Origin: Candidatus Fervidifonticultor quintus | Lineage (GTDB): Bacteria; Sysuimicrobiota; Sysuimicrobiia; Sysuimicrobiales; Humicultoraceae | Direction: 5' to 3' | Length of the DNA: 36,701 nt | Assembly (NCBI GenBank): GCA_031459535.1 | Contig: JAVKIJ010000025.1 | Location: 1-36,701, forward strand | In this document: piece by piece, positions 7,673-34,507 of the stretch | Position numbering within the stretch: position 1 is the stretch's first letter | Layout: each line of letters opens with the position of its first letter | The notes under the pieces: generated by a model | Database searches by the model: none | What the model was told of the DNA's origin: nothing | What the model saw: the letters and a program-made list of their open reading frames with translations, nothing else | Position numbers and translations under genes: made by a program

Positions 7673-7683
7673 GAGAGACGATC

Positions 7684-9039: not shown

Positions 9040-9050
9040 GGACGTGAAGC

Positions 9051-10976: not shown

Positions 10977-10991
10977 GGAGGGAGTGAGCTG

Positions 10992-12373: not shown

Positions 12374-12377
12374 TGCG

Positions 12378-13349: not shown

Positions 13350-13359
13350 GAGGACGACA

Positions 13360-14145: not shown

Positions 14146-14159
14146 GAGGAGGTGACCCC

Positions 14160-16021: not shown

Positions 16022-16710
16022 TCGTCGCGGAGCGCAAGTCCCTTGAGGCAATCCTCCAGATGATGGCCCCGTACCGCAAGGTCCTGGTCGTGGGATGCGC
16101 CACCTGCACATCGGTCTGCCTGGCCGGCGGTGCCCGCGAGGTGGCCATGCTGGCCCCGCTGGTGCGCATGGCCCGACAGACTCGTGGCGAGCCGCCGCTG
16201 GAAGTGCTGGAGGCAACGGCACAGCGGCAGTGCGACCGGGAGTTCCTGCTGCCCCTGGCAGCCCAGGTCGAGGAAGCGGAGGCGGTCTTCTCCATGGCGT
16301 GCGGGTGCGGGGTCCAGTTGCTGGCTGAGACCTACCCGCAGCGCCGTACCTTCCCCCTGCTAGACACCAAGTTTATGGGCGTCGTCCTCGAGCCGGGGTG
16401 GTGGGCCGAGCGGTGCCGGGGGTGCGGCGAGTGCGTGCTGGACCGCACCGGCGGCATCTGCCCCATCACCCGGTGTTCCAAGGGGCTCCTCAACGGCCCC
16501 TGCGGCGGTTACCGCGACGGGAAGTGTGAGGTGGACCCCAGCGTGGACTGCGGGTGGCTGTTGATCTTCCAGCGCCTGCGGGAGCTGGGGGAACTGGAGC
16601 GGATGCGCGAGATTCTGGGTCCGAAGGACTGGTCAGTGGCCGCAGTCGGCCGGCCGCGGCGCGTGGTGCGAGACGACATGAGGCAATCCATCGAGGAGGT
16701 ACCCGCATGA
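16018..16710 (+). CDS. metV: Methylene-THF reductase Fe-S/Zn subunit MetV
   Basis: Starts at ATG 16018 (ATGA overlap with folC). GCATCTSVC, RQCD, ACGCG, CRGCGECVL..TGGICPITRCSKGLLNGPCGG...CEV....CGW. Confidence 0.9.
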   Translation: MIVAERKSLEAILQMMAPYRKVLVVGCATCTSVCLAGGAREVAMLAPLVRMARQTRGEPPLEVLEATAQRQCDREFLLPLAAQVEEAEAVFSMACGCGVQLLAETYPQRRTFPLLDTKFMGVVLEPGWWAERCRGCGECVLDRTGGICPITRCSKGLLNGPCGGYRDGKCEVDPSVDCGWLLIFQRLRELGELERMREILGPKDWSVAAVGRPRRVVRDDMRQSIEEVPA

Positions 16711-18419: not shown

Positions 18420-18438
18420 CCGAGCAGGAGGGGTTGCG

Positions 18439-19338
18439 ATGACCCTGCGCGAGGCGCTGAGCAGCGGCGCGTTCGTCGTGACCGTCGAGGCGGCGCCACC
18501 CAAAGGCACGGCGGTGGAAGGGGTCCTGGCCGAGGCGGAGAAGCTGCGCGGCCGCGTGCAGGCGTTCAACGTGACGGATCAACAGAGCTCCGTCATGCGC
18601 CTGGGATCCCTGGCCCTCTGCCACCTGCTTGCCGAGCGGGGTCTGGAGCCCGTCTACCAGGTGACCTGCCGCGACCGCAACCGCATCGCGCTGCAGTCCG
18701 ACCTGTTGAGCGCGGCGGCTTTGGGGATCGAGAACGTGCTGTGTCTCACTGGTGACCACGTTAGCATGGGCGATCACCCCCAGGCCAAGCCCGTCTTCGA
18801 CCTGGACGCGGTCACGCTGCTGCAGGCGGCGCGGGCGCTGATGGAGGGCCACGATCTGGCCGGGAAGGAGCTGGCCGGCGCCCCGCGCTTCTTCCTCGGC
18901 GCCGTCGTGAGCCCGTGCGCCGAGCCGCTCGAGCCCCAGATCTTCAAGATGGAAAAGAAGGTGCGCGCCGGGGCGGCGTTCTTCCAGACCCAGGCCATCT
19001 TCGACCTGGGCCGGTACGCGGCGTTTCACGAGGCGACGCGCGGCATGGGCGTGCCGGTGCTCGCCGGGCTGGTGATGCTCAAGTCGGCCAAGATGGCCCG
19101 GTTCATGAACCAGAACGTCCCGGGCGTCTTTGTGCCCGGTGCGCTCATCGCCGAGATGGAAGCCGCCAAGGACGCCAGAGAACGCGAGCGCGCCAGCGTG
19201 GAGATCACCGCCCGCCTGATCCGGGGGCTCCGGGGGCTGGCCGCGGGCATCCATATCATGGCCATGGGCTGGGACCATCTCATCCCGCGGGTGCTGGAGG
19301 CCGCTGGCCTGCAGCAGCAGCCTGTGGAGGCGGCGTGA
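18439..19338 (+). CDS. metF: Methylene-THF reductase flavoprotein subunit MetF
   Basis: NVTD, TCRDRNRIALQSDLL, LCLTGDH, KKVRAGAAFFQTQ, GIHIM. Confidence 0.93.
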   Translation: MTLREALSSGAFVVTVEAAPPKGTAVEGVLAEAEKLRGRVQAFNVTDQQSSVMRLGSLALCHLLAERGLEPVYQVTCRDRNRIALQSDLLSAAALGIENVLCLTGDHVSMGDHPQAKPVFDLDAVTLLQAARALMEGHDLAGKELAGAPRFFLGAVVSPCAEPLEPQIFKMEKKVRAGAAFFQTQAIFDLGRYAAFHEATRGMGVPVLAGLVMLKSAKMARFMNQNVPGVFVPGALIAEMEAAKDARERERASVEITARLIRGLRGLAAGIHIMAMGWDHLIPRVLEAAGLQQQPVEAA

Positions 19339-19339
19339 C

Positions 19340-22300: not shown

Positions 22301-24493
22301 GCCCGGGAGCACGCGCCGGATGCGGAGTGCACGGTCTACTACGCCGACCTCCGCGCGTTTGGCAAGGGGTTCGACGCCTACATCGAACGGGCCAGGCGCG
22401 CAGGGGTGCGTTACGTCCGCACGCGGGTCGCCGCGCTGCGCGAGGATCCGCGTACGCGCTCGCTTTCCTTCAGGGTGGAAGAGAACGGTCAGATCCGCGA
22501 AGAGGAGGCCGACCTAGTCGTCCTCTCCGTGGGCCTGACCCCGCCGGCCGGCGCCGCGGCCCTGGCCACCGCCGCGGGCATCGAGCTCGACGGTTACGGG
22601 TTCGCCAGGACCTCCCCCACCTCGCCCCTGCAGACATCCCGCGCCGGGGTGTTCGCCGCCGGGGGATTCCGCGGTCCCAAGGACATCCCCGATTCAGTGA
22701 CCGACGGCAGCGGCGCCGCAGCCGCGGCCCTGGAGCTCATCGGTGCGGCCCGCGGCACCCAGATCGTGGCCAAGACGTATCCGCCCGAGATGACGGTGGA
22801 TCCGATCCCGCGCATCGGCGTGTTCATCTGCCACTGCGGGTCGAACATCGCCGGCGTGGTGGATGTCAGGGGCCTGGCGGCCTACGCTCGCACACTGCCG
22901 GGTGTGGCCGTGGCCGAGACGTCCATGTACACGTGCTCTGCCGACACCCTGGCGCGCATCAAGCAGGCCATCGCAGAGGAGCACCTCAACCGGGTGGTCG
23001 TGGCGAGCTGCACGCCTCGGACCCATGAGCCCATCTTCCGCGAGGCGCTGCGGGAAGCCGGGCTGAACCCGTACCTGTTCGAGATGGCCAACATCCGCGA
23101 CCAGTGCTCGTGGGTCCACGGGGCTGATCCCGCCGCGGCCACCGAGAAGGCCCGCTTGCTGATTGCCGCGGCTGTGGCGCGGGCGGCGCGACTGCAGCCG
23201 CTGCACAAGGTGCCGGTGCCGATGCGAGGCGAGGCGCTGGTGGTCGGCGGCGGGGTGGCCGGATTGACCGCGGCGCTCAACCTGGCCGACCAGGGCTTCC
23301 CGGTGACGCTGGTGGAGCGCGATGCTGCCCTTGGCGGCCGACTGCGCGCCTCGCGCCTCGCACGGGACGGTGAGCCCTCGGGCGCCGAGATCGCAGACCG
23401 GCTGATCGCGCGGGCCCGGGCCCATCCGAAACTCACCGTGCTGACCGGGTGCCACGTGGTCGCCTCGCGCGGTACCGTCGGCAACTTCGAGACCACCCTG
23501 GCTGGGCCCGACGGCGAACGCACCGTGCGGCACGGTGTCACGATCCTCGCCACGGGCCTCCAGGAGTGGCACCCGAGCCCCTACGGCGTCGGCGAGGACC
23601 CCCGGGTGATCACCCTGTCGGCGTTCGAGGCGAAGATCGCCGAGGGGGCGTGGCAGGAGCCTCCTCGCGCCGTGGCCATGTTGCTGTGCGCGGGCCCCTG
23701 GGATCGGATGCCGTTCTACTGCAGCCGCACCTGTTGTGCGCAATCTCTGGCCGCAGCCCTGGCCTTCAAACGCGCACATCCCCAGGCGTCGGTGGCGGTC
23801 CTGGTCCGCGAGGTCCGCACCTATGGGTTCACCGAAGAGCTCTACACCCAAGCGCGAGCGGCCGGGGTCCAGATATTCCGGTACGAGGCCGACGCGCCTC
23901 CGATCATCCAGCGCGCGCCGGAAGGCGTCGCCGTCACCGTGCGCGACCCGAGCCTGGGTGAAGTCCTGACGCTGGGGGCAGACCTGCTGGTGGTCTCGCC
24001 GGCCCAGGTGCCATCGGACGGCGCGGGTGAGCTGTCCAATCTGTTCAAGGTGCCGGCCTCGGCGGAGGGTTTCTTCCTGGAGGCCCACGTCAAGCTGCGG
24101 CCCGCGGACTTCGCCAGCGAGGGCCTGTTCCTCTGCGGCGGCGCGCACTATCCCAAGCCGGCGGGCGAGGCGATCGCCCAGGCCCTGGCCGCCGCCGCTC
24201 GCGCCAGCACCCTGCTGTGGCGCGACAGCCTCGAGGTGGGCGGCGTGGTGGCGTCGGTCGACCGCGACCGGTGCACGAAGTGCCTGACCTGCCTACGGCT
24301 GTGCGCGTATGACGCCATTGTGTTCGACGCCGACGGCATCGCGGTCGTGGAACCGACTCGCTGCCAGGGATGCGGTCTGTGCGTGGCCGCCTGCCCGGGC
24401 AGCGCGCTCAGCCTGGGGCACTACACGCGCGACCAGATGCTCGCCAAGATCGACGCGTTGCTCGGCGAAATGGAGGCCGTGCATGCCTCCTGA
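19340..24493 (+). CDS. hdrA: Large HdrA-like flavoprotein (HdrL type: two HdrA modules plus inserted GltD-like NAD(P)H module) with N-terminal cNMP-binding and HisKA-like domains
   Basis: 1717 aa with no internal stop; RBS GGAGG before GTG 19340. Residues ~1-150 look like a cNMP beta-roll (VFNEGEEARYLYVIHEGRVAL). Residues ~158-208 read FDLRAP...GYAGELTADQRHIL. HdrA motifs: VVGGGIAG, LDKTFPTNDCAMC, CVGSRD..YCSTVCC, FICHCG.NI, CTPRTHE, NIRDQCSWVH. GltD insert from PCRDACP to RCLAC. C-terminal 2x[4Fe-4S]. Confidence 0.92.
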   Translation: MIEREAIDRCGLFAGLSASARDLVASMGKVVTFRPGERVFNEGEEARYLYVIHEGRVALEMRPPRPDGDAPRSVVVTVLGPGDPLAWSAVVPPFVLTMSAVCIEPTVLVALDARPLRRLITLDWETGYAIMAGLVDLILSRLSTIRARMAQIHAAAAFDLRAPAMRVATYLESVLAGYAGELTADQRHILQGCRERLQAQIDVLDRLLRVPAPGDEPFERGEMTPGAVEPGKEGAGPTDGNGAPVGAAMVVGGGIAGIQAALDLADAGIKVYLVERGPAIGGRMATLDKTFPTNDCAMCILSPKLSGVGRHPNVEILTLAELQRLEGAAGDFVATVRRRPRFVDPLRCTACGDCAAVCPVSLLSEFDAGLAERRAIFRPYAQAVPGAYAIDKRGRAPCRDACPIHQRAQGYVALVAQGRYEEAFRVIADDNPFPGICGRVCNHRCEDACSRGLLDGAVNIAGLKRFVADWMYARPRQPVQRAAVRYSERVAVVGSGPAGLTAARDLALLGYQVTVFEALPVAGGMMRVGIPEHRLPTAIVEREIADIADLGVEIRCNSRIAHVRDLLADGFAAVFVASGAHRARRLPIPGAELPGVLVSTDVLQNARLGRPVALGRRVLVLGGGNVGFDVARTCVRLGAEEVRVLCPESREAMPAHPWEIAAAEEEGVRVHPGTAFVRVIERDGRAAGLECQRVRSMRFDEARRLHLDLVEGSEHVFEADTIVFAIGLAVQLELVEGLSGIETTPWGSLAVDPVSGATGHPGVFAGGDVATGTAFVVDAIAAGQRAAKGIHAYLRGEALATKLPAPVATLDRAEVERRLARGLIRPQPRATVHALPPQERRASFVEEDLGLTEEEARREASRCLACGACSECFACVAACKRGAINHEEVERLERLRVGAVILAPGIEPFDATLAEAYGLGRFPNVVTGPQFERLLSASGPTQGHITRPSDGREPRRIAFLQCVGSRDQRTKYCSTVCCMYATKEAILAREHAPDAECTVYYADLRAFGKGFDAYIERARRAGVRYVRTRVAALREDPRTRSLSFRVEENGQIREEEADLVVLSVGLTPPAGAAALATAAGIELDGYGFARTSPTSPLQTSRAGVFAAGGFRGPKDIPDSVTDGSGAAAAALELIGAARGTQIVAKTYPPEMTVDPIPRIGVFICHCGSNIAGVVDVRGLAAYARTLPGVAVAETSMYTCSADTLARIKQAIAEEHLNRVVVASCTPRTHEPIFREALREAGLNPYLFEMANIRDQCSWVHGADPAAATEKARLLIAAAVARAARLQPLHKVPVPMRGEALVVGGGVAGLTAALNLADQGFPVTLVERDAALGGRLRASRLARDGEPSGAEIADRLIARARAHPKLTVLTGCHVVASRGTVGNFETTLAGPDGERTVRHGVTILATGLQEWHPSPYGVGEDPRVITLSAFEAKIAEGAWQEPPRAVAMLLCAGPWDRMPFYCSRTCCAQSLAAALAFKRAHPQASVAVLVREVRTYGFTEELYTQARAAGVQIFRYEADAPPIIQRAPEGVAVTVRDPSLGEVLTLGADLLVVSPAQVPSDGAGELSNLFKVPASAEGFFLEAHVKLRPADFASEGLFLCGGAHYPKPAGEAIAQALAAAARASTLLWRDSLEVGGVVASVDRDRCTKCLTCLRLCAYDAIVFDADGIAVVEPTRCQGCGLCVAACPGSALSLGHYTRDQMLAKIDALLGEMEAVHAS

Positions 24494-24983
24494 AGTCGAG
24501 TCGGTTGCTGCCCGCACCCCGCCCGCACCACCGGCTGAGGCCTCCAGCGCACCGGTGCAGATCGTGGCCTTCTGCTGCTTCTACTGCGCGTATGCCGCAG
24601 CCGATCTGGCGGGCGTGATGCGCCTGTCCTACCCGCCCAACGTGAAGGTGGTGCTGCTGCCGTGCACCGGCGGGGTTGATCCGCTCTACATCCTACGCGC
24701 CTTCGAGGCCGGGGCGGACGGCGTGTTCGTGGCCGGGTGCCTGGAGGGCCAGTGCCACTACCAGGTGGGTAACCTCTATGCGCGCGGCCGCGTGGCAGAG
24801 CTGAAGCGTTATCTGGACGAAGCCGGCGTCGGCGGCGAGCGCCTGGAGATGTTCAATCTCTCGTCCGCGCAGGGGCCGCGGTTCGCGGAGATCGCCCGGG
24901 AGATGACCGAGCGCATCAGGGCCCTCGGTCCGTCGCCGGTCCGGCGGGCCGGGAAGGAGCGGGCACATGCCGCAGGCACCTAG
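24483..24983 (+). CDS. mvhD: MvhD-like [2Fe-2S] subunit
   Basis: ATG 24483 overlaps the hdrA end. AFCCFYCAYAAADLAG, LPCTG, AGADGVFVAGCLEGQCHY, ERLEMF. Confidence 0.92.
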   Translation: MPPEVESVAARTPPAPPAEASSAPVQIVAFCCFYCAYAAADLAGVMRLSYPPNVKVVLLPCTGGVDPLYILRAFEAGADGVFVAGCLEGQCHYQVGNLYARGRVAELKRYLDEAGVGGERLEMFNLSSAQGPRFAEIAREMTERIRALGPSPVRRAGKERAHAAGT

Positions 24984-26370
24984 CGCAGCGCGCGGCGGGC
25001 TCGCCGACGAGATTCGCGGCACTAGCGGCCAGGACGTGGCGCTCTGCTTCCAGTGCAAGGTATGCACCAGCGGGTGTCCCCTGGCCGGCGAGATGGACCT
25101 GGTGCCCCACGCGCTGATGCGTGCCCTGCAGGTGGGGCGCGATGCCCGCGTGCTGGGGGCCAACACGTTCTGGCTGTGCGCCTCCTGCCTGGCCTGCACG
25201 GCTCGCTGTCCTCAGGGCATCGACGTCGCCCGGGTCATGGACGGGCTGCGCATTATCGCCACGCGGCGGCGGGTACCGCCGCGGGTGCCGGAAGCGCTGA
25301 TCTTCTCCCAGGCGGCGGTGCGCAGCATTCGGATGTTCGGCCGGCTGTTCGAGGCAGGCGTGGGCGCCGAGATCAACCTGCGCACGTGGCAGCCGCTGCG
25401 TGCGGGCGCGCATGCCCTGCGTCTGTGGCGGGCGGGCAGGCTGCGCCTGCTCCCGGATCTGCCGGGCCGGCCGTCGCGCGCGCCCGCGGCGGCCGGCGAG
25501 ATTGCCTACTACCCCGGGTGCGCCCTGCACGCCAGCGCGCGAGAATACGATACGTCTGCCCGCGGCGTGGCCGAGGCGCTGGGCCTCGCGCTCCACGAGC
25601 TCGAGGGATGGCGGTGTTGCGGCGCCACGGCAGCCCACCAGACGTCTGCAGAGCTGGCCACGGACCTGCCGATGGCGAACCTGACCATGGCGGCCCAGCG
25701 CGGCTTCACCACCATCACCGCTCCGTGCGTGGCCTGCTTCTCGCGCCTCCGCTACGCCCAGGCCGCCTCACCCGAGCGCGCGCCGGCGGGGTTGCGGGTC
25801 CAGCACCTGCTACACACCCTGCTAGATGCCGGGCTGGAGGAGATCCGCCGCCGGGTGAGAAGGCCGCTGGGCGGGCTGCGCGTGGCGTGTTACTACGGCT
25901 GCCTGCTGACCCGGCCTCCGGCGATCACGGGCGCGCCGAGCGTGGAGAACCCGCGGGAGATGGACCGCATCATCGAGGCGCTGGGCGGAGAACCGGTCGA
26001 GTGGTCCTTCAAGACCGAGTGCTGCGGTGCCGGCCACGCCATCGTGAAGCCCGAAATCGTCGTAGGCTTGGTGCGCCGCATCCTGCGCAATGCGCAGGCC
26101 GCCAGCGCCGAGGCCGTGGCAGTGGCCTGTCCGCTGTGCCACCACAACCTGGACGCGCTGCAGGACGACGCCGCCCGCGCCGGCGACCTGCACCCGACCC
26201 CGGTGTTCTTCTTCACCCAGCTCTTGGCGCTGGCGTTCGGCCTCGACGAGCGGACCGTGGGTCTCGACCGGCTACTCGTAGACCCGCGGCCGCTGCTGCA
26301 GATGCGGGGGCTGCTACCGGTCGGGCCCCAGGAGCTGGGCGCGCGTGATGCGGCCCGCGCGGCAGGCTAG
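24967..26370 (+). CDS. hdrCB: Fused HdrC-HdrB protein
   Basis: HdrC clusters CFQCKVCTSGCP and CASCLACTARCP. HdrB: YYPGC, WRCCG, PCVAC, YYGCLL, ECCG, ACPLC (two CCG domains). Confidence 0.9.
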   Translation: MPQAPSAARGGLADEIRGTSGQDVALCFQCKVCTSGCPLAGEMDLVPHALMRALQVGRDARVLGANTFWLCASCLACTARCPQGIDVARVMDGLRIIATRRRVPPRVPEALIFSQAAVRSIRMFGRLFEAGVGAEINLRTWQPLRAGAHALRLWRAGRLRLLPDLPGRPSRAPAAAGEIAYYPGCALHASAREYDTSARGVAEALGLALHELEGWRCCGATAAHQTSAELATDLPMANLTMAAQRGFTTITAPCVACFSRLRYAQAASPERAPAGLRVQHLLHTLLDAGLEEIRRRVRRPLGGLRVACYYGCLLTRPPAITGAPSVENPREMDRIIEALGGEPVEWSFKTECCGAGHAIVKPEIVVGLVRRILRNAQAASAEAVAVACPLCHHNLDALQDDAARAGDLHPTPVFFFTQLLALAFGLDERTVGLDRLLVDPRPLLQMRGLLPVGPQELGARDAARAAG

Positions 26371-26398
26371 CTCAGCAGGATGGCGCAGGGAGGCACGC

Positions 26399-27025
26399 AT
26401 GTACCCACAGATGTCGATCGAAGGCTTTCTGGATCGGCTGGCGTCGTCTGATGCAGAGCCCGGGGGCGGGGCCGCCGCGGCGCTGGTGGCAGCGGTGGGC
26501 GCCGCGCTGGTGAGCATGGTGGCCAGCCTCACGGTGGGCAAGGAGAAGTATGCGGCAGTCCAGACCGAGATGGAGGAGGTCCAGGCGAAGGCCCGCGGGC
26601 TGGTGCGGGACCTGGCTGGGGCCATTGACCGGGACGCCGAATCGTTCCGCAAGGTCATGGCGGCCTACCGGCTCCCGAGGAACGACGACGAGCAGAAGGC
26701 CCAGCGCACGCGAGCCATCCAGCAGGCGCTGCGGGACGCGACGGCCGAACCCGCGCGGGTGGCGCGCTTGTGCGGCGAGATCGCCGAGCTCAGCCGGGTG
26801 GTCATGGAGAAGGGGAACGTGGGGGCCATCACCGACGCGGCGATCGCCGCCGTGCTGGCCGACGCGGCGGCGGCGAGCGCCGCCCTCAACGTGAAGATCA
26901 ACCTGGGGCCGATCGGCGATCCGGCGTTCACCGAGCCCCTGTGGGTGGAGCTGCAGCGCCTGACCGACGACATCCGATCGGTGCGTGACGAGGTGTTGCG
27001 CGCCACGTACGACAGGCTCAGGTGA
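26399..27025 (+). CDS. fchA: Methenyl-THF cyclohydrolase (FTCD cyclodeaminase/cyclohydrolase family)
   Basis: LASSDAEPGGGAAAAL, LVSMVASLT.GKEKY, IDRDAESF, KGN...ITDA, LNVKINL; ATG 26399 with RBS GGAGG. Confidence 0.88.
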   Translation: MYPQMSIEGFLDRLASSDAEPGGGAAAALVAAVGAALVSMVASLTVGKEKYAAVQTEMEEVQAKARGLVRDLAGAIDRDAESFRKVMAAYRLPRNDDEQKAQRTRAIQQALRDATAEPARVARLCGEIAELSRVVMEKGNVGAITDAAIAAVLADAAAASAALNVKINLGPIGDPAFTEPLWVELQRLTDDIRSVRDEVLRATYDRLR

Positions 27026-27030
27026 GGCCC

Positions 27031-27954
27031 ATGGGTGAGGTCATTGACGGACGGGCTATCGCCGACGAGATCAAGCGCGAGCTGACCGCCGAGGTTGCCC
27101 GCCTGACGGCCGAGGGCCGCGCGCCAGGCGTGGCCACACTGCTGGTGGGTGAAGATTACGGCGCGAAGATGTACCGCCGCCAGATCGAGCGGCTCGCCTC
27201 CGAGATCGGGGTCCTCTACCGCGACCTGACTCTCCCCGCGGAGGTGACCCTCGCGGAGGTCCTCGACGCCATGGCCTCGCTCAATCGCGATCCGCAGGTG
27301 CATGGCATCCTGCCACTGAGACCCCTGCCCAAGGGCGTCCCGGAAGGCCCGGTGCTGGAGGCCATGGATCCGGCCAAGGATATCGACGGTCTCCATCCCA
27401 TCAACGCCGGACGGATGGCGCTGGGTCAGGCCCTGGTGTACCCGGCAACCCCCTGGGCGTGCTATGTGCTGCTCGAGAGATACTTCGCGGGCAAGGGGCT
27501 GGATCCCAAGCAAGCCTTCGAGGGCAAAGATCTGGTGATTGTCGGGCGCAGCAACAGCGTGGGCAAGCCCGCGTACTTCCTGGCGCTGGAGCGCAACGCC
27601 ACGCCCACTACCGTCCACTCGTTCACGTTCCGGGCAGGGGTGCTGGCGGAGCACACGAGGCGCGCCGACATCCTCATCGTGGCCATGGGCAGGGCGGAGT
27701 TCATCACTGCCGACATGGTCAAGCCCGGCGCCATCGTGGTGGATGTCGGTGTCAACATGAAGCCGGTTCTGGACAGCGCGGGCCAGCCGGTGCTGGACGA
27801 CCGCGGTAACCCGAAGAAGACGACGGTGGGCGATGTCGCCTTCGACGAGGTACGCCAGGTCGCGGGCGCCATCACCCCCGTGCCGGGCGGCGTCGGGTCG
27901 GTCACCAATGTGCTGCTCATGCAGAACGTGGTTCGGGCCGCAGGAAGGGTCTGA
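27031..27954 (+). CDS. folD: Methylene-THF dehydrogenase (FolD family, probably monofunctional)
   Basis: IDGRAIA, KDIDG.HP.N, PATP, VGRSNSVGKP, VVDVG.N, GDV, ITPVPGGVGSVT. Alternative start GTG 27022. Confidence 0.93.
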   Translation: MGEVIDGRAIADEIKRELTAEVARLTAEGRAPGVATLLVGEDYGAKMYRRQIERLASEIGVLYRDLTLPAEVTLAEVLDAMASLNRDPQVHGILPLRPLPKGVPEGPVLEAMDPAKDIDGLHPINAGRMALGQALVYPATPWACYVLLERYFAGKGLDPKQAFEGKDLVIVGRSNSVGKPAYFLALERNATPTTVHSFTFRAGVLAEHTRRADILIVAMGRAEFITADMVKPGAIVVDVGVNMKPVLDSAGQPVLDDRGNPKKTTVGDVAFDEVRQVAGAITPVPGGVGSVTNVLLMQNVVRAAGRV

Positions 27955-28003: not shown

Positions 28004-29989
28004 ATGACGCAAGTGGACAAACAAGTCATCCACGTAGACAGGCACGTCTTTGCACTTCCGCGGCTGGGGATTCCGCCCTGCCAAGCTGCTTGCCCGATTC
28101 ACCAGAACGCCCAGGGGTACATCGCCCTGGTATACGAGGGCAAGTTCGAGGAAGCGCTCAAGATGATCCTGCGGGACAATCCGCTCCCAGCGGTCTGCGG
28201 GCGCGTCTGCACCCATCCCTGCACCGTCGCATGCAGCCGTGCCACGGTCGACGAAGCCATCCACATTCCCGGTATCAAGCGATTTGTCGTCGACCATGTG
28301 CTGGCGCGTGGTGGCGACTACCAGTTGCCCCGACCCAGAAGGGAGCGCCCGGAGCGCGTCGCCATCGTCGGTAGCGGGCCGGCGGGTCTGATGTGCGCGT
28401 ATGAGCTGCGCCAGAGAGGATACCAGACCGTGGTGTTCGAGGCGCTGCCGATGGCCGGCGGGATGCTGGCGGTAGGCGTCCCGGAGTTCCGGTTGCCCCG
28501 GCGCGTGTTGCAGAGGGAGATCGGGAAACTCGAGGAGATCGGGGTCAGGATCAACCTGAACACGCCAGTCGGACCGCAGGGGATACCGCTGGAGCGGCTC
28601 AGGACGCAGTATGACGCAGTCTTTGTCGCCATCGGAGCTCATGTCGAACGTCGGCTGGAGGTGCCCGGGGAGGATCTACCGGGCGTCTGGGGCGGGCTCG
28701 AGTTCCTGAGGAGGATCAAGCTGGGCGAAGCGGTGGGCCCCCCCCTGGTCCTGGGTAGAAGGGTGTGCGTGATCGGTGGAGGCAACTCTGCCCTCGACGC
28801 CGCCCGCACGGCCCTGCGGGCCGGGGCGGAGGAGGTACGCCTCTTCTATAGGCGCACCCGGGCAGAGATGCCTGCTGACCCGGCCGAGATCGACGAAGCC
28901 CAGCGGGAGGGTGTCACGTTCGACTTTCTCGCCGCTCCCAAGGCCATCCTGGGCACCGAACGGGTCAGGGGGGTGGAATTCCTCAGGATGCAGTTGGGCC
29001 CACCTGATGAGTCAGGTCGGCCATCGCCAATTGCCATCCCCGGTTCTGAGTTCGTCGTCGACTGCGATGCAGTTATCGTTACCATCGGTCAGGTGCCGGA
29101 TCTCCAGCCCCTGGGAGAGCGGCTCGGCCTGCGGTCGACCCGGTGGGGGACCCTGGACGCCGACCCACTGACCCTCCAGACGAACGTGGAAGGCGTCTTT
29201 GCCGGAGGCGACTGCGTCAGCGGCCCGGACGTGATCGTGGCGGCCATGGCCGCGGGCAAGAAGGCCGCCATCTCCATCGACCGCTTCTTGAGTGGGCTGG
29301 ATCTTCGCCGCGTGGCCAGGGAACTGGTAGGCGGCAGCCCCGTCAAGGTCGAGACCCAGGGCATTCCCGCGCGGCCGCGGGTGCCGATGCCGGCCATCGA
29401 GTTGGGACGGCGCGGCGGATTCGAAGAGGTGCACACCGGCTACTGTGAGGAGCTGGCCCGGGCGGAGGCGAGCCGCTGCCTCGAGTGTGCCAGCGGCGGC
29501 GATCCGCTCGCCGAACCGCTGCCGCGCGAACTCGCGGCCATCCTGGAGCGCCACCGGGGCCGCGACGACGTGCTTGTGATCGTGCTGCAGCAGGTCCAGG
29601 CGCAGTACGGGTACCTTTCCGAGCGCGCCCTGCGATATGCCTCCAGGGAGCTAGACATTTCGCTGGCGCGCATGTACGGCGTGGCCACGTTCTACAACCA
29701 GTTCCGCTTCACCCCGCCGGGACGGGTCCAGCTGCAGGTGTGCTGCGGTACGGCCTGCCACGTCGGTGGCGCCCCTTCCATCCTGGAACGGCTCAAGGCC
29801 CACCTGCAGATCGCCGAGAACCAGACGACTCCGGACGGGGTCTTCACGCTCCAGACCGTCTTCTGCGTCGGGTGCTGCAGCCTGGCCCCCGTCGTCATCG
29901 CCAACGGGGCGGCACACGGCCGTATGACACCGGGGCGGGCAGAGAGCCTGGCGCGCGATCTACGAGCCGCGGAGGAGGGCCGTCAGTGA
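28004..29989 (+). CDS. Fusion of GltD/NfnB-like FAD/NADPH oxidoreductase with C-terminal NuoE/HydC-like [2Fe-2S] domain
   Basis: ATG 28004 with RBS GGAG. PCQAACP, CGRVCTHPC...C, VGSGPAG, GGGNSALD, YRRT...MPA, FAGGD, RCLEC; then NuoE-like YGYLS, VATFYNQF, VCCGTACH, FCVGCCSLAP. Confidence 0.88.
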   Translation: MTQVDKQVIHVDRHVFALPRLGIPPCQAACPIHQNAQGYIALVYEGKFEEALKMILRDNPLPAVCGRVCTHPCTVACSRATVDEAIHIPGIKRFVVDHVLARGGDYQLPRPRRERPERVAIVGSGPAGLMCAYELRQRGYQTVVFEALPMAGGMLAVGVPEFRLPRRVLQREIGKLEEIGVRINLNTPVGPQGIPLERLRTQYDAVFVAIGAHVERRLEVPGEDLPGVWGGLEFLRRIKLGEAVGPPLVLGRRVCVIGGGNSALDAARTALRAGAEEVRLFYRRTRAEMPADPAEIDEAQREGVTFDFLAAPKAILGTERVRGVEFLRMQLGPPDESGRPSPIAIPGSEFVVDCDAVIVTIGQVPDLQPLGERLGLRSTRWGTLDADPLTLQTNVEGVFAGGDCVSGPDVIVAAMAAGKKAAISIDRFLSGLDLRRVARELVGGSPVKVETQGIPARPRVPMPAIELGRRGGFEEVHTGYCEELARAEASRCLECASGGDPLAEPLPRELAAILERHRGRDDVLVIVLQQVQAQYGYLSERALRYASRELDISLARMYGVATFYNQFRFTPPGRVQLQVCCGTACHVGGAPSILERLKAHLQIAENQTTPDGVFTLQTVFCVGCCSLAPVVIANGAAHGRMTPGRAESLARDLRAAEEGRQ

Positions 29990-31587
29990 GAGCCACCGTG
30001 AGGGTCGGGACGTCTACCTGCGGCCTGGCAACCGGTGCCGAGGCGACGTACGTCGCGCTTCAGGAGGCGGCGTCGGATCTGGGGCTGGAGATATTTGTTC
30101 AGCGCACGGGATGCCTGGGCGCATGCCACCGCGAGCCGCTGGTCGAGATTGTCACAGACGGCGCGCACGTGCTGTATGGCCCTGTGACCGGGGATCGGGC
30201 GCGGCCACTGCTGGAAGGGCACTTCATGCTGCACGGAGCGTCTCCGCCGCCGCAGGAGTGGATCGTCAGCCGCACCGCCGACCGCCGCGACTATCCGTAC
30301 TTCGCCTCACAGATCAAAGTGACGACCAGGAACTGCGGGGCGATCGACCCGCGCTCGTTGGACGACTACCTGGCCGCCGGAGGGTACGAAGGGTTGAGGT
30401 GCGCGCTGGCCATATCCCCGGAGGCCGTGATCGACGAGGTCAAGCGGAGTAAGCTGCGCGGTCGCGGCGGGGCAGGCTTTCCCACCGGCGTCAAGTGGGA
30501 GATCTGCCGGCGTCAGCCCGATCCGATCCGGTATTTGGTGTGCAACGCGGATGAGGGCGATCCCGGCGCCTTCATGGACCGGACGGTCATCGAGGGCGAC
30601 CCCCACCGGGTCCTGGAGGGCATGGCCATCGCGGCCCACGCCATCGGCGCCCACCTGGGGTACGTCTACGTCCGAGCGGAGTACCCACTGGCCGTCCGGC
30701 ACCTGGAGGCGGCAATCGAGCAGGCCCGCGAGGCAGGCTACCTCGGGACCAATATTCTCGGCTCCGGCCTGAACTTCGATGTCATCGTGAGAGAAGGAGC
30801 AGGAGCGTTTGTCTGCGGCGAGGAGACAGCCCTCATGCAGTCCATCGAGGGTAAGCGTGGCGTGCCGCGGATGCGTCCGCCGTACCCCGCAGAGTCGGGC
30901 TTGTGGGGGCACCCCACCAACATCAACAATGTGGAGACCTACGCCAGCATTCCCGACATCATGACGAGGGGTGGGGAGTGGTTTGCGGGCCTGGGGACGG
31001 CTGACAGTGGCGGGACCAAGACGTTCGCGCTTACCGGCGCGGTCAGGCTCACCGGTCTGATCGAGGTCCCCATCGGGATCACGCTGCGGGACGTTATCTT
31101 TGGGATCGGCGGCGGCATCCGGGAAGGCCGGTCCTTCAAGGCGGTGCAGATCGGCGGACCGTCCGGCGGCTGTTTATCCGCCTCACACCTGGACACGCCG
31201 GTGGACTACGGGCCGTTGAGAGCCACGGGTGCCATCATGGGGTCGGGCGGCATGGTCGTGGTGGACGACCACACCTGCATGGTGGACCTGGCGCGTTATT
31301 TCCTGCAGTTCACCCAGAGCGAGTCGTGCGGGAAGTGCGTCCCGTGCCGGATCGGGACACGCAAGATGCTGGGCATCCTCACCCGCATCACCCGCGGGGA
31401 AGGCCGGGCCGACGACATCGAGCGCCTGGAACAGGTGGCGCAGACCGTTCGTACCGCGTCGTTGTGCGGCCTGGGCCTGACCGCGCCCAATCCGGTGCTG
31501 ACCACTCTTCGCTACTTCAGACATGAGTACGAAGCGCATGTTCATGACCGGACGTGCCCAGCCGGCGCGTGCGCCGGCTCGAGGTGA
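29986..31587 (+). CDS. nuoF: NuoF/HydB-like FMN/NADH-binding subunit lacking the C-terminal ferredoxin domain
   Basis: GTG 29986 (GTGA overlap). N-terminal thioredoxin-like domain (TCG...GCLGACHREP), RGRGGAGFPTG, CNADEGDPGAFMDR, FVCGEETAL, GGPSGG, ESCGKCVPCR...SLCGLG; ends CPAGACAGSR. Confidence 0.9.
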   Translation: MRATVRVGTSTCGLATGAEATYVALQEAASDLGLEIFVQRTGCLGACHREPLVEIVTDGAHVLYGPVTGDRARPLLEGHFMLHGASPPPQEWIVSRTADRRDYPYFASQIKVTTRNCGAIDPRSLDDYLAAGGYEGLRCALAISPEAVIDEVKRSKLRGRGGAGFPTGVKWEICRRQPDPIRYLVCNADEGDPGAFMDRTVIEGDPHRVLEGMAIAAHAIGAHLGYVYVRAEYPLAVRHLEAAIEQAREAGYLGTNILGSGLNFDVIVREGAGAFVCGEETALMQSIEGKRGVPRMRPPYPAESGLWGHPTNINNVETYASIPDIMTRGGEWFAGLGTADSGGTKTFALTGAVRLTGLIEVPIGITLRDVIFGIGGGIREGRSFKAVQIGGPSGGCLSASHLDTPVDYGPLRATGAIMGSGGMVVVDDHTCMVDLARYFLQFTQSESCGKCVPCRIGTRKMLGILTRITRGEGRADDIERLEQVAQTVRTASLCGLGLTAPNPVLTTLRYFRHEYEAHVHDRTCPAGACAGSR

Positions 31588-31597
31588 GGTGGTGGCG

Positions 31598-34507
31598 ATG
31601 GTGACCCTGGTCATCGACGGGAAGATCGTGACCGCCCCCGCGCGGTCCACCGTGCTGGACGCCGCGCTTGCCGCCGGGATCGACATCCCCCGCCTGTGCC
31701 ACCATCCGGACCTGACCCCCTGGGGCGGGTGCCGCCTGTGTCTCGTCGAGGTCGAGGGGCAGCCCGCACCAGTGCCCTCGTGCGGCCTGGTGGTCCGCGA
31801 TGGTCTGGTGGTCACCACGCGCAGCGAGCAACTGACCCAGCTGCGCCGCGAGGTCCTGGATTTCCTGCTGTCCGATCACCCGCTGGACTGCGTGGTCTGC
31901 GAGAAGGCGGGCCGGTGCCAGTTGCAGCGGTACGCCTACGAGTTCGGCCTGAAGGAGAGCACCCACGAGAAGGAGATTTCACGTACGCTCTACCAGGACG
32001 ACAACAAGTTCTTCGTCCGTGATCACCAGTACTGCATTGCCTGCACCCGCTGTGTCCGTGTGTGTGACGAGATCGTGGGTGCCAGCGCCATCGAGATGGC
32101 GCAGCGCGGCTTCACCGCGTATGTCGCGACGCCCTTTGACCTCCCGTTGGCCGACGGGCCCTGCACGTTTTGCGGAAACTGCGTGCAGGTCTGTCCCACG
32201 GCTGCTCTGATGCCCCTGAGCCGCCTTGGCCAGGGTCGCGAATGGGATCTGACCCAGACCCGCACCATCTGCCCCTACTGCGGTACAGGGTGCGGGATCG
32301 AGGTGGCCACGCGCAACGGCCAGATTGTGGCGGTCTGGGGCTATCCCGCAGCCACGGTCAACGGCGAGTTCCTCTGCACCAAGGGCCGGTTCGGCCTGGA
32401 CTACGTGACGCATCCTCACCGCTTGCGGCGGCCGTACATCCGGCGCGATGTGGCCCGTGAGCTCGGCCTGACCCAGGATCCACCGCCGCCGATGCTGGAC
32501 CGTTCCCCGCTTATCCGCCCTGCCGGGCTTTCGGGCACCCACATGGAAGTGGACTGGGATGTCGCGCTGGACCTGGTGGCCGATCGGCTGGCACGAATCG
32601 TGCGGGAGTCGGGGCCTGACGCCGTCGCCGGCATCGGTTCGGCGCTGGCCAGCAACGAGGACAACTACGTGTTCCAGAAGCTGATGCGGGGGGCGATCGG
32701 GACCAACAACGTTGACCTCTGCGCCCGTCTCTGACACGCACCTTCGGTGGCCGGTCTGGCCGCCGCCTTCGGAAGTGGGGCCACGACGAACAGCATCCGC
32801 GAGATCCGCGATGCCGACTGCATTCTGGTCATCGGGTCCAATACCGGTGAGGCGCACCCTGTGGTATCCTACGAGGTTGTTCGCGCCGTGAGGCGCGGGG
32901 CGACCCTGATCGTGATCGATCCGCGGCGGATCAGCCTGGTCCGGCACGCCGCGATGCATCTGCGTCCGGCACCCGGCGCCGACCATGCCCTCTACCTGGG
33001 TATGCTGCACGCCATCGTCGCCAACGGCTGGCACGATCCGCTGTTTATCGCGGAGCGCACCGAGGGGTTCGAGGATCTGGTGACATCGCTCCGGGCGTGG
33101 ACCCCTGAGGCTGCCAGCGCCCGCTGTGGGGTGCCCTCCGCACAGATCGTCGAGGCCGCCCGGTGCTACGCCTGGGGGTTGCGCCGCGCGGCCGCCAGCC
33201 AGGGTGCGGTCCCCTCGCAGCGGGGCGCCTCGACCATTCTCTACGGCATGGGCATCACCGAGCGCTCCAACGGCACCGAGCTGGTCAAGACCCTGGCGAA
33301 TCTGGTGATGGTCGCGGGACACGTCGGCCGGCCGTCCACCGGTATCTACCCCCTGCGCGGCCAGAGCAACGTCCAGGGCGGGTGCGACATGGGGTCGCTG
33401 CCCAACGTCTATCCAGGCTACCAGCGGGTGGAGGATCCCGAGGTGCGCGCCAGGTTTGCCCGCGCGTGGGCCCGTCCGCGCGCGAAGCCGCCCGAGCTCC
33501 CGACCAACCGTGGACTCACCTTCGTGGAAATGATCAAGGCGGCGGCCGAGGGGCGGATCAGGGCCATGTACATCATGGGGCAGAACACCGTGATGACCAA
33601 TCCTGACGCCGGCCTTTCCGAGCGAGCTCTGCGCGCGCTGGACTTTCTGGTGGTCCAGGAGATCTTCCCGACCGAGACCGCGCAACTGGCGCACGTGGTC
33701 CTCCCCGCTGCCTCCTTCGCCGAGAAGTCCGGGACGTTCGTCAACCTGGAGCGCCGGTTCCAACTGCTGCGGCCGGTACTCCCGCCGCCGGGGCAGGCGC
33801 GGCCCGACTGGCAGATCCTGTGCCAGGTCGGCGCGCGCCTCGGTCGGCGCCTGCGCCGGGCGCTGCGCTGGGAGTACGGATCGGCGGCCGAGATCATGGA
33901 CGAGATTGCCCGCCTGTGCCCGTCGTATGCCGGCATCAGTCACGCGCGGCTCGAGGCGGGCGGGATCCAGTGGCCGTGCCCATCGCCGACGCATCCTGGG
34001 ACGCCGATCATGCACGGCGGGCAATTCGTGCGCGGCCGAGGCCGGTTCCATGTGACGGCGCCAGCGCCTCCGTTCGAGCCCACCGATGCCGAGTATCCTC
34101 TGGCACTGTCCACGGGGCGGATTCTCTTCCACTACAACGGTGGGCCCATGACCCGGCGGTCGGTACCCCTTGATTGGCGAGAGCCGAGGGCCTATGTCGA
34201 AGTCAATCCGCTCGACGCCGAGCGCGCGGGCGTGCGGGACGGCCGGCCCTGTCTGGTCCGGGGCCGGCGCGGGAGCGTGAGGGTGCAGGCGCGGGTCAGC
34301 GATGTGGTGCCGCCCGGGATGGTCTATATGCCGTTCCACTTCCGCGAGGCAGCCGCGAACATCCTGACCCACGCCGACGGACTCGATGCCGGAGCCAAGA
34401 CGCCGGAGTACAAGTTCTGCGCGGTCAGGCTGGAGCCCGTCCAGGGCGGGCGGGAAGCGCTCGGCCGTGAGGGTGGGACCGAGACCGCAGCGGCTGCGGG
34501 CAGATAA
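31598..34507 (+). CDS. fdhA: Selenocysteine-containing Mo/W formate dehydrogenase alpha subunit with NuoG-like N-terminal Fe-S domains
   Basis: The two track ORFs are in one frame, joined by TGA 32732-32734 in NNVDLCARL-U-HAPS. Catalytic Arg in PLRGQSNVQG; CPYCGTGC; N-terminal [2Fe-2S], HPLDC..C.....C and 2x[4Fe-4S]; C-terminal KTPEYK. Confidence 0.93.
32745..32765 (+). promoter_or_regulatory. Bacterial SECIS element
   Basis: CGGTGGCC-GGTCT-GGCCGCCG hairpin starting ~11 nt after the UGA, with apical GGUC as in the E. coli fdhF SECIS. Confidence 0.8.

Follow-up and report, generated by a model that had tools for sequence, protein, structure and literature searches.

A GltD-type flavoprotein cassette fused to NuoE in a selenocysteine formate dehydrogenase operon of Candidatus Fervidifonticultor quintus

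The window (the whole 36,701-nt stretch of DNA analysed here) contains a complete Wood-Ljungdahl cluster which ends with a GltD-NuoE fusion gene, NuoF and a selenocysteine FdhA. The host is a hot-spring bacterium, represented by a MAG of 138 contigs (89% complete, 5.2% contamination). The Wood-Ljungdahl genes upstream of the fusion (2739..27954), located on the forward strand like all features described below, were assigned by Pfam in the order CooC, CODH, AcsB, AcsC, RACo, CooC, DUF3786, AcsD, AcsE, MaoC, a protein with the MTHFR C-terminal domain (PF12225), Fhs, MetF, giant HdrA, MvhD, HdrBC-like, FchA and FolD. RNA contigs of one metatranscriptome cover folD only. In the 89%-complete genome, FdhA is encoded only at this locus, as is an FDH-type NuoE/NuoF set, which leaves no unfused back-up. 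A canonical NfnAB pair is also encoded.

The fusion gene (28004..29989; 661 amino acids plus stop) starts with an ATG preceded, 8 nt upstream, by the Shine-Dalgarno sequence GGAG, and its product matches Fer4_20 (residues 24–101), Pyr_redox_2 (118–418) and 2Fe-2S_thioredx (511–653) in Pfam. Alignments delimit the GltD cassette to residues 14–496 (28043..29491), which are predicted to hold two [4Fe-4S] clusters, FAD and NAD(P)H. The Fer4_20 region at the N-terminus (28073..28306) covers only profile positions 30–110 and contains Cys 26, 30, 65, 69, 73 and 77, whereas the first segment of the profile (positions 3–28) is found at residues 471–496 (29414..29491), ending in RCLEC (Cys 492 and 495). 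When these residues are searched in isolation, Fer4_20 is the sole Pfam family matched (E 1.5e-4), and the canonical NfnB of the genome has the equivalent FxEV...EASRCLEC segment N-terminal of its C...CP motif. Fer4_20 is therefore circularly permuted, and Cys 492 and 495 complete the eight-cysteine set. The linker quoted in the preliminary description, RCLECASGGDPLAEPLP (residues 491–507, nt 29474–29524), had been placed at about 29474–29525, but its RCLEC part is the last piece of the cassette rather than linker. The actual junction, as aligned with the GltD family and with the NuoE proteins of relatives, is Ala-Ser-Gly (29489..29497): GltD-family homology stops at Cys495/Ala496 and NuoE homology starts at Gly499. 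Only three residues thus separate Cys495 from the first NuoE-homologous residue, which keeps the cassette near the NuoE N-terminus. A complete, self-contained GltD/NfnL cassette of predicted NADPH type has been joined in frame to the start of nuoE.

The fusion is real and confined, as far as seen, to one species. Logan contigs had been assembled separately per run, with an assembler other than that of the MAG, from three DNA runs, one for each of three samples in a single study, from which the MAG itself may stem. Two of them (X1 and X2) span 27677–30300 and the third (X3) spans 27400–29827, without a single difference or gap; each of the three assemblies thus crosses both cassette junctions. 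An assembly artefact, named as a possible refutation in the preliminary description, is thereby ruled out. That the gene is an assembly or binning chimera is hardly credible altogether: the fragmentation and contamination of the MAG and the affiliation of the closest cassette relatives with other phyla would fit it, but both flanks are syntenic with relatives, and a chimera would not be expected to produce two joins that are both in frame and exactly at domain borders. None of the 40 related genomes gives a match spanning both halves of the fusion. Stand-alone NuoE genes occur in six of them (47–81% identity), four of which (G018, G017, G003 and G008) carry NuoE and giant HdrA on one contig; in the first three, NuoE and the HdrA insert are 7425–7437 bp apart, versus 8970 bp in the window, which is longer by about 1.54 kb exactly at the cassette position. 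In a same-genus genome, FolD abuts a 181-residue NuoE whose homology to the window starts at GDPLAEP. The operon of the relatives (FolD-NuoE-NuoF-FdhA) lacks GltD, and the cassette is therefore a late add-on in a lineage-specific fusion.

The cassette retains 136 of 140 conserved GltD-family columns and all eight cysteines. It is 69% identical to the GltD insert of the 1133-residue HdrA P0005, and its nearest relatives are GltD cassettes within HdrA proteins of ~1130 residues from other phyla, with which it forms a four-row clade (support 98/98), on an end branch of ordinary length (0.29 vs a median of 0.31). The cassette derives from a lineage usually inserted in the HdrA of Mvh-Hdr clusters. 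Among 16 measured genes and gene segments, it has the lowest GC3 (0.80, against 0.84–0.91 for the rest), which is compatible with a foreign origin and has no bearing on function, and its codon usage is largely ameliorated (cosine 0.953). After the second Rossmann strand, residues 282–286 (28847..28861) form the motif YRRTR, a 2'-phosphate (NADPH-type) signature that is also present in the aligned StnC and Csac NfnA, the structures of which were solved with NADPH according to an excerpt of PMC10482914. RR opens the motif in all 96 family matches where it was located. This motif points to an NADPH-type nucleotide preference and agrees with the separate NADPH site proposed earlier.

The NuoE domain (residues 499–661; 29498..29986; Pfam) shares 81% identity with the stand-alone NuoE of a related genome and retains all 23 columns conserved among relatives; Cys 580, 585, 621 and 625 are its likely [2Fe-2S] ligands. 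The NuoF-like subunit (29986..31587; 533 amino acids; Complex1_51K, SLBB and NADH_4Fe-4S) begins with a GTG at 29986 overlapping the fusion TGA (29987–29989), and comprises an N-terminal thioredoxin-like domain, an FMN/NADH site and one [4Fe-4S]. The C-terminal B3/B4 domain is absent from it: residues 5–530 align with residues 3–524 of the 584-residue Bfu B subunit, and its end coincides with the start of the B3/B4 ferredoxin domain in such subunits. In an excerpt of PMC11829005, bifurcation by T. kivui HydABC is lost on deletion of the B3/B4 domain, which is described there as missing in non-bifurcating homologues. Csac NfnA, NfnB and NfnC together with StnA, StnB and StnC give the best PDB matches (407 bits for the cassette, ~700 for NuoF and 135 for NuoE), bearing out the earlier likening of the complex to Stn, while FdsB and FdsG score lower (374–437 bits for NuoF and 74–87 bits for NuoE).

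FdhA most likely starts at the ATG at 31598, 10 nt after the NuoF stop (31585–31587), and has 969 residues including selenocysteine (31598..34507), with a NuoG-like Fe-S N-terminus and a complete molybdopterin catalytic domain (Fer2_4, NADH-G_4Fe-4S_3, Fer4_Nqo3, Molybdop_Fe4S4, Molybdopterin and Molydop_binding). In the PDB it best matches a tungsten formate dehydrogenase alpha subunit (7e5z_A, 663 bits), followed by FdsA (6tg9_A). An in-frame TGA (32732..32734) in the motif CARL-U-HAPS is read as selenocysteine; the FdhA frame of the same-genus relative halts at the identical CARL position, and the genome contains a tRNA-Sec (anticodon tca) as well as selB and selA fragments at contig ends. 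The hairpin downstream of the FdhA TGA scores no better than shuffles. In sum, borders and domains agree with the GltD-NuoE, NuoF and Sec-FdhA order first described.

The preferred reading, which has about an even chance of being right, is that an NAD-type formate dehydrogenase acquired a simple NADPH port. The enzyme would be a soluble NuoE-NuoF-FdhA selenocysteine formate dehydrogenase/CO2 reductase with NuoE as the gamma-type subunit and three predicted substrate sites: the GltD FAD would serve NADP(H), the NuoF FMN would serve NAD(H), and the Mo/W-Sec centre CO2/formate. By analogy with Stn, whose GltD flavin is the non-bifurcating entry of NADPH (excerpt of PMC10482914), the cassette would serve simply as a port that does not bifurcate: the FAD, once reduced by NADPH, would send single electrons through both cassette clusters to the region of the NuoE [2Fe-2S] and FMN or to the NuoG-like chain of FdhA, from where they would reach the catalytic centre, with ferredoxin playing no part. 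If so, the more reducing NADPH pool could drive CO2 reduction, or formate could reduce NADP+.

The preliminary description suggested an enzyme that might couple three substrates energetically: NADPH oxidation would be bifurcated to low-potential CO2 and high-potential NAD+ or, in reverse, formate oxidation would charge both nucleotide pools, with CO2/formate replacing ferredoxin in a Stn-like cycle. All three sites are intact, NuoF (700 bits) and NuoE (135 bits) match the bifurcating Bfu B and C subunits better than they match FdsB and FdsG, and the minimal bifurcating flavobicluster B1-FMN-C1 is still present (Pfam; excerpt of PMC11829005). If uncoupled, an enzyme with sites for NADPH and NADH would, in addition, be a futile transhydrogenase short-circuiting the two pools, which argues for some gating, and the NuoF-GltD fusions beside HydABC genes (L064 and L078) place the cassette exactly at the B3/B4 position, so cassette clusters can fill the low-potential exit. 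Obligate coupling is nevertheless unlikely, given a NuoF without the B3/B4 domain, a Stn flavin that does not bifurcate, and a topology reversed relative to Stn, with the NuoE side of the window's enzyme as the entry for NADPH and its NuoG side as the place of formate/CO2; the enzyme of relatives lacks the cassette, and NfnAB is already available. The sequences suggest two nucleotide sites on the enzyme, between which energetic coupling is possible but unsupported.

It is similarly improbable that the cassette is a passenger, i.e. a recent, tolerated in-frame insertion that is electrically isolated or plays a minor role while NuoE folds and the NADH-linked enzyme works. Its occurrence in one species and its slightly low GC3 would suit such an insertion, yet the conserved columns, cysteines and branch length speak against this, the ameliorated codon usage argues that the insertion is not very recent, and the cuts match natural cassette borders exactly, as in NuoF-GltD fusions and stand-alone forms. 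A cassette binding NADH or both nucleotides, which would give two NADH sites, has an apparent precedent in the giant HdrA of M. thermoacetica, whose sole predicted NAD(P)H site is the GltD domain and which oxidises NADH (excerpt of PMC9430772). This is very unlikely here, since the giant-HdrA lineage is acidic at the motif (xE in 60 of the 65 loci where it was located, including two Moorellaceae records) and the insert of the window's giant HdrA has CPESR, unlike the YRRTR shared by the fusion and NADPH-bound StnC.

Compared with known systems, Stn shares the building blocks of the window (NuoE-like, NuoF-like and permuted GltD cassette), supplies, together with Csac Nfn, the best PDB matches for all three modules (407, 701 and 135 bits) and likewise adjoins Wood-Ljungdahl genes (excerpt of PMC7483475). 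However, its cassette lies inside a NuoG-like subunit with a catalytically dead Fdh-like domain, whereas in the window it lies on NuoE, so the wiring differs, and is accompanied by a complete FdhA that has Sec and Molydop_binding; the B3/B4 clusters present in StnB and NfnB are missing from the window's NuoF. FdsABG (6tg9/6tga) and the tungsten enzyme 7e5z share with the window the NuoG-like N-terminus on a Mo/W alpha subunit (650–663 bits), a beta subunit with FMN and one [4Fe-4S] but no B3/B4, and a NuoE-like gamma subunit. The window's relatives have this architecture, which was also found without GltD in 9 of 171 loci, all among the 80 loci from the NuoF query. Unlike in these enzymes, the gamma subunit in the window bears a 483-residue cassette of predicted NADPH type, beta and gamma are nearer to Bfu subunits, and the active site has Sec; Fds enzymes use Cys there.

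The M. thermoacetica NADP-dependent formate dehydrogenase also links an NADPH site to a formate-dehydrogenase-type subunit. Geobacter SfrAB, by description, pairs an NADPH flavoprotein with an FdhA-type subunit without a NuoE/NuoF module, and an excerpt of PMC7483475 describes SfrB as GltD-like and related to StnC. The search for GltD-NuoE fusions suggested earlier yielded one other case, the uncharacterised P0143 family of Thermodesulfobacteriota (Fer2_4-GltD-NuoE, ~845 residues), the only other polypeptide found with a GltD cassette followed by NuoE. It is encoded beside fhs and a NuoF gene at a locus lacking FdhA, differs in its N-terminal NuoG-type [2Fe-2S] domain and in a NuoF that retains the C-terminal Fer4 domain, looks like a two-gene Stn and is of independent origin. 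HdrA with a GltD insert (~1130 residues, in HdrCB-HdrA-MvhDGA clusters; also the giant HdrA of M. thermoacetica) represents the source lineage, with inserts 60–69% identical to the window cassette, which is nested in their clade; there the cassette interrupts the protein, whereas here it has been cut out at its two borders and attached to NuoE. The uncharacterised NuoF-GltD and NuoE-NuoF-GltD fusions beside HydA (L064, L078, L098 and L097) likewise join a cassette to a NuoEF module with the same borders, ending 3–22 residues past the RCLEC position, but their cassette is C-terminal on NuoF, belongs to another clade and is partnered with an [FeFe] hydrogenase.

The window is one entire contig (GC content 66–72%) of a metagenome-assembled genome of 3.1 Mb in 138 contigs, which is 88.9% complete with 5.2% contamination. 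Almost all of its genes lie on the + strand and together form a complete Wood-Ljungdahl cluster as identified by Pfam, in the order CooC, CODH, AcsB, AcsC, RACo, CooC, DUF3786, AcsD, AcsE, MaoC, a PF12225 protein, Fhs, MetF, a 1717-aa HdrA-like protein, MvhD, an HdrBC-like protein, FchA and FolD; the GltD-NuoE fusion, NuoF and FdhA come next, and after them the genes of a histidine kinase and response regulator. A multihaem cytochrome c with paired CXXCH motifs (20–745, +) precedes the Wood-Ljungdahl genes at the head of the contig, and the HAMP-GAF-HisKA_3 histidine kinase and response regulator (34545–36699, +), which may regulate the operon, lie directly 3′ of fdhA. The ORF containing PF12225 (the MTHFR C-terminal domain; 661 aa; 14725–16707, +) shares about 150 nt with the longest Fhs ORF (16554–18416, +), whose true start is probably later, as the Fhs Pfam match begins only at residue 58. 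The giant HdrA-like protein (19340–24493, +), the segment of which has its closest named relatives in Candidatus Fervidifonticultor and Armatimonadota MAGs (78–83% identity), contains an N-terminal cyclic-nucleotide-binding domain (PF00027, residues 31–120), a ligand-sensing domain unusual on an Hdr/MetF-associated flavoprotein, and its own GltD cassette (residues ~388–874) with the NADH-like CPESR motif.

The fusion gene (28004–29989, +), which has a GGAG 8 nt 5′ of its ATG, encodes a 661-aa protein with the Pfam domains Fer4_20 (residues 24–101), Pyr_redox_2 (118–418) and 2Fe-2S_thioredx (511–653), a GltD/NfnL-type cassette being joined to a NuoE domain. On the same strand follow a 533-aa NuoF, whose GTG start at 29986 overlaps the TGA of the fusion gene, and FdhA, most likely starting at the ATG at 31598, 10 nt past the NuoF stop, with an in-frame TGA at the Sec position (32732–32734, +). 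This arrangement had been noticed in the preliminary description, and by the ORFs, the Pfam domains, the overlapping NuoF start and the in-frame TGA the observation is upheld in full. The NuoE part (PF01257, 511–653) contains all the likely [2Fe-2S] (C1) ligands (Cys 580, 585, 621 and 625) and has its best PDB match in the archaeal NfnC (9n5u_C, 135 bits; FdsG homologues, 74–87 bits), while NuoF best matches Csac NfnB (701 bits; FdsB, 374–437 bits). By these matches, the two proteins are closest to the C and B subunits of the bifurcating Stn/NfnABC/HydABC type (Bfu). NuoF aligns with residues 3–524 of the 584-aa Csac NfnB and, as it stops at NfnB residue 524, lacks the C-terminal B3/B4 ferredoxin domain; Pfam detected no Fer4 domain in it, and the NuoF of G002, a genome of the same genus, ends likewise.

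FdhA combines a NuoG-like Fe-S N-terminus with a complete Mo/W-bis-PGD domain (six Pfam domains, including Molybdopterin and Molydop_binding), and in the PDB it best matches 7e5z_A (663 bits), the alpha subunit of a tungsten formate dehydrogenase, followed by FdsA (6tg9_A, 649 bits). The FdhA frame of G002 halts at the same place, after CARL. The genome of the window contains a tRNA-Sec (66 bits, anticodon tca). A hairpin predicted 3′ of the TGA (centroid −18.8 kcal/mol) does not stand out from shuffled versions of this GC-rich stretch (z-score 0.55). The Sec genes are interrupted by assembly gaps, selB and selA being found only as contig-end fragments: the selB 3′ end adjoins tRNA-Sec at a contig start (C130:18–170 and 2809–2900), and the 5′ end of selA is located at the end of contig C40 (4799–5239). 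The window FdhA is the sole FdhA in this 88.9% complete genome, and the only other NuoE and NuoF belong to one NuoE-NuoF-NuoG-like set on contig C95, which we take to be complex I; the genome therefore has no unfused back-up.

Three DNA runs, from three samples of one hot-spring study from which the MAG may derive, contain all sampled words of 27700–29800. Among the Logan per-run contigs, for which each run was assembled alone with an assembler different from that of the MAG, X1 (3584 bp, depth 23.6) and X2 (2906 bp, depth 17.1) both span 27677–30300 and X3 (depth 6.5) spans 27400–29827. It is highly improbable that the fusion is an assembly or binning chimera, since this would require two in-frame joins at exact domain borders as well as flanks both syntenic with relatives, and since the contigs of all three samples cross both junctions with 0 differences and 0 gaps relative to the window; the assembly artefact that the preliminary description had considered is thus not borne out. 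One RNA run yielded contigs over folD only (27536–27871) and scattered short matches, with none over the fusion.

Among 40 related genomes from the same genus, family and order, none contains a match covering both halves of the fusion, and the fusion was seen in one species. The best GltD matches in these relatives share 39–44% identity with the cassette, except for a 58-residue contig-edge fragment (52%). Stand-alone NuoE proteins, in frames of 181–199 aa matching fusion residues ~468/490–660, are encoded by six relatives (G018, 81% identity; G029, 71%; G017, 69%; G002, 68%; G008, 53%; G003, 47%), and only weak NuoE-like matches occur in G013 and G022. The distance from the giant-HdrA cassette to NuoE is 7425–7437 bp in G018, G017 and G003 and 8970 bp in the window, an excess of ~1.54 kb which fits the 1488-bp cassette plus a 49-nt spacer. 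In G002, the 181-aa NuoE has its ATG overlapping the stop codon of FolD, and a 533-aa NuoF and then FdhA come next. Homology between the window and G002 starts at GDPLAEP (window Gly499) and the GltD-family homology stops at Cys495/Ala496, so that only Ala-Ser-Gly (29489–29497) lies between the two. The GC3 of the cassette (0.80) is the lowest among the window genes measured (others 0.84–0.91), its codon usage being otherwise like that of the window genes (cosine 0.953), and we read the cassette as an acquired, partly ameliorated segment.

In the database, the 119 best relatives of the fusion align only with its residues ~14–495, and none of them contains a NuoE domain. Most are ~1130-aa proteins labelled HdrA, in which the segment is an insert sharing 60–69% identity with the window over residues 14–495, as in P0005 (insert at residues 291–772, 69%); in the loci inspected (L276 and L272), such HdrA genes lie in hdrC-hdrB-hdrA-mvhD-[NiFe] hydrogenase clusters. 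In a maximum-likelihood tree of 36 cassettes, from which 3 truncated rows were dropped, the window cassette is placed within the clade of HdrA inserts (22 rows, support 99/93), in a 4-row subclade (98/98) with proteins from Acidobacteria and Deferrimicrobium, on an end branch of ordinary length (0.29; median 0.31), and is distant from the StnC-like proteins, the NuoF-GltD fusions and the giant-HdrA cassette. A recent copy of the latter was rejected as the source, as the two share just 42% identity, belong to different clades and differ in nucleotide motif.

Insert-type GltD cassettes contain a Fer4_20 circularly permuted relative to canonical NfnB/GltD (compared at L003:1330–1770), with FxEV...RCLEC at the C-terminus rather than the N-terminus. 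In the fusion, residues 471–496 match Fer4_20 profile positions 3–28 (E 1.5e-4, no other family matching) and residues 24–101 match positions 30–110, whereas the canonical NfnB of the genome has the order FxEV...EASRCLEC-x5-C-x3-CP. The idea that RCLEC is an Fe-S motif truncated by a crude deletion was rejected, as it belongs to the permuted Fer4_20. The permutation gives fixed cassette borders, PPC...RCLEC, which recur in StnC (residues 102–566), Csac NfnA (102–567) and stand-alone forms of 540–550 aa, while NuoF-GltD fusions end 3–22 residues past the RCLEC position; the GltD region of StnC is given as 102–565 in the structural account of Stn (PMC10482914). By comparison with the canonical ferredoxin-type motif, the predicted ligands are Cys 492, 495, 26 and 77 for the distal cluster and Cys 30, 65, 69 and 73 for the one beside FAD. 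Where at least 90% of 23 relatives agree, which is the case in 140 columns, the cassette retains 136 (the four changes being I/L, V/I, I/V and A/P), the NuoE part retains 23/23 conserved columns, and as judged by conservation the cassette is complete.

After the second Rossmann strand, the fusion contains FYRRTRAEMPA, the motif of StnC and Csac NfnA; the Stn structure is described as solved with NADPH bound (PMC10482914). Among the 120 proteins listed in the search with the fusion, all 96 in which the motif was found share the RR start, the pattern being unmatched in the other 24. The giant-HdrA cassette possesses LCPESREAMPA, and of 79 loci related to it the motif was found in 65, with an acidic xE in 60 (including two Moorellaceae records) and RR in 5. 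The GltD domain of Moorella thermoacetica HdrA is described as the sole predicted NAD(P)H site of a protein that oxidises NADH (PMC9430772). By this motif argument, the genome would encode one NADH-like and one NADPH-like cassette, of which the formate dehydrogenase obtained the latter. Contig C88 (L003:362–2814) contains a canonical NfnAB-like pair of overlapping genes, encoding a PyrK-like protein of 323 aa and an unpermuted GltD-like protein of 495 aa, and the organism probably already has an Nfn-type transhydrogenase.

The sequence comprises three intact redox modules, with FAD at a site of the NADPH type, FMN at a site of the NADH type, and a Mo/W-Sec site. We give about an even chance to the cassette being a non-bifurcating NADPH port on a formate dehydrogenase. 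It would take a hydride from NADPH and pass single electrons through its two clusters, as described for the non-bifurcating GltD cassette of Stn (PMC10482914). The electrons would then join the Fe-S network of the enzyme and reach the catalytic centre, or run in reverse. In cells NADPH is held more reduced than NADH, and the CO2/formate couple lies below both, so that an NADPH port would aid CO2 reduction in the Wood-Ljungdahl direction. The three-residue junction pins the cassette against the NuoE N-terminus and therefore favours contact at the NuoE [2Fe-2S]/FMN side over the place that the cassette occupies in StnC. Folding the cassette (1–497) against the NuoE domain (498–661) with alignments gave a score of 0.24, short of the 0.32 mark.

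The preliminary description had instead proposed an energy-coupled reaction of NADPH, NAD+ and CO2, which appears unlikely. The B and C subunits are of the Bfu type with the B1-FMN-C1 core in place, and a two-nucleotide enzyme lacking gating would be a futile transhydrogenase; however, B3/B4 is missing from NuoF, compared with Stn the topology is inverted, the GltD flavin of the Stn type is non-bifurcating, the sister enzymes of the relatives have no cassette, and a canonical NfnAB pair is already in the genome. Non-bifurcating homologues are described as devoid of B2–B5, and deletion of B3/B4 as abolishing bifurcation in T. kivui HydABC (PMC11829005). Quite unlikely is the proposal that the complex is a working form of the apparent ancestor of Stn/NfnABC, namely a NuoEF enzyme with one Fe-S network serving both a live formate dehydrogenase and a GltD port for NADPH, in which NADPH, NAD+ and CO2/formate would be coupled (gated or bifurcating) without ferredoxin, and which would represent a new class of bifurcating or confurcating CO2 reductase recently built by cassette shuffling.

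The joining of GltD cassettes to NuoEF modules is a theme already known and met repeatedly, and a cassette occurs in 33 of the 80 best NuoF-related loci, in many of which StnC-like genes come after NuoE and NuoF. The four NuoF-GltD fusions (L064:5995–9036, L078:5896–8970, L097:325–3876 and, assigned by similarity only, L098:5097–8180) carry the cassette in place of the B3/B4 domain and may belong to NADP-linked [FeFe] hydrogenase complexes; those of L064 and L078 are followed by a second NuoE-NuoF-HydA set, and that of L097, one long ORF whose N-terminal part matches NuoE (NuoE-NuoF-GltD), lies directly 5′ of HydA. Thermodesulfobacteriota MAGs encode a two-gene Stn-like unit (L125:6033–10535, L119:3190–7716 and L124:5922–10523), consisting of a NuoF which retains the C-terminal Fer4 and a ~845-aa Fer2_4-GltD-NuoE protein, the family of which matches 16 loci at 76–85% identity; in L125 and L124, the two with that ORF scanned, the unit is directly 3′ of fhs. 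Among 171 loci fetched with NuoF and the database protein P0143 as queries (a non-exhaustive selection, made up of the best 80 from either search), 12 encode a full-length FdhA, of which 9, all from the NuoF query, have no GltD cassette. In the other three, deltaproteobacterial loci L137 (5010–12335), L178 (3217–8461) and L190 (466–5861), a full-length NuoG-type FdhA adjoins an HdrA-like protein that carries the cassette, and no NuoEF gene was seen in the scanned parts; L178 also has an adjacent MvhD gene, and the HdrA-like frame of L178 and L190 requires read-through of one TGA.

A word-indexed search with fusion residues 430–661 against proteins of 363–1157 aa gave 16 matches, 15 of which contain PF01257 and none of which, apart from the window's own protein, combines it with PF14691. 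A HMMER scan (residues 400–661) of 1.84 billion 50%-identity representatives found both domains only in P0143 (Fer2_4-GltD-NuoE) among the best 150, which omit the window's own protein and may miss fusions under other cluster representatives. The combination of a NuoE-borne cassette, a NuoF lacking B3/B4 and a live Sec-FdhA was not found elsewhere among the relatives, database searches and fetched loci, and no paper on NuoE fused to GltD, or on a formate dehydrogenase of the GltD/NuoEF kind, was found in the literature covered, which excludes subscription journals. Comparison of the sequences shows the permuted GltD cassette as a discrete, mobile module whose borders are shared across at least five contexts (HdrA insert, StnC/NfnA insert, NuoF C-terminus, Fer2-GltD-NuoE and stand-alone), and this bears on the evolution of Stn-type enzymes.

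Soluble formate dehydrogenases of the NuoEF type serve as models of reversible CO2 reduction, and their nucleotide specificity determines the redox pool at whose expense the cell runs the first Wood-Ljungdahl step. The window complex looks like a natural experiment, in which an otherwise ordinary NAD-type enzyme obtained an NADPH flavoprotein port by clean cassette insertion and for which the unfused sister enzymes of close relatives provide comparison material. A working port would suggest a simple route to re-wire such enzymes to NADPH, while coupling of the three sites would make the complex a bifurcating CO2 reductase with no need for ferredoxin.

Stn/NfnABC enzymes catalyse the NADPH-dependent simultaneous reduction of NAD+ and ferredoxin. 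The window complex shares with them a NuoE-like subunit with a predicted [2Fe-2S] cluster (C1), but their B subunit contains FMN, B1 and the C-terminal ferredoxin-binding B3/B4 [4Fe-4S] clusters, the last of which the window NuoF lacks, and their cassette lies inside a NuoG-like A subunit with an inactive Fdh-like domain, whereas that of the window is N-terminal of NuoE and its FdhA has no insert. The StnC-like protein of locus L033 lacks Molydop_binding, while the window FdhA possesses Sec, Molybdopterin and Molydop_binding. In NfnAB/NfnSL, an unpermuted Fer4_20 large subunit occurs beside a PyrK-like small subunit, whereas the window Fer4_20 is split and Pfam identified no PyrK-like gene in the window. 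The cassette nests in the clade of those from ~1130-aa HdrA proteins, which sit between the halves of the HdrA thioredoxin-reductase-like domain, but in the window it is flanked by FolD upstream and NuoE downstream and has no HdrA flanks. As in Sec formate dehydrogenases, fdhA has an in-frame UGA at the catalytic position and the genome encodes Sec machinery. FdsABG/FoDH1 is matched in the alpha subunit (NuoG-like Fe-S N-terminus, complete Mo/W-bis-PGD domain) and in the beta subunit (FMN and a single [4Fe-4S], no B3/B4), while its gamma subunit is a small stand-alone NuoE-like protein and that of the window is fused to a 483-aa cassette. As judged by its domains, the complex lacks features that define Stn/NfnABC and NfnAB, and differs from FdsABG in the gamma subunit.
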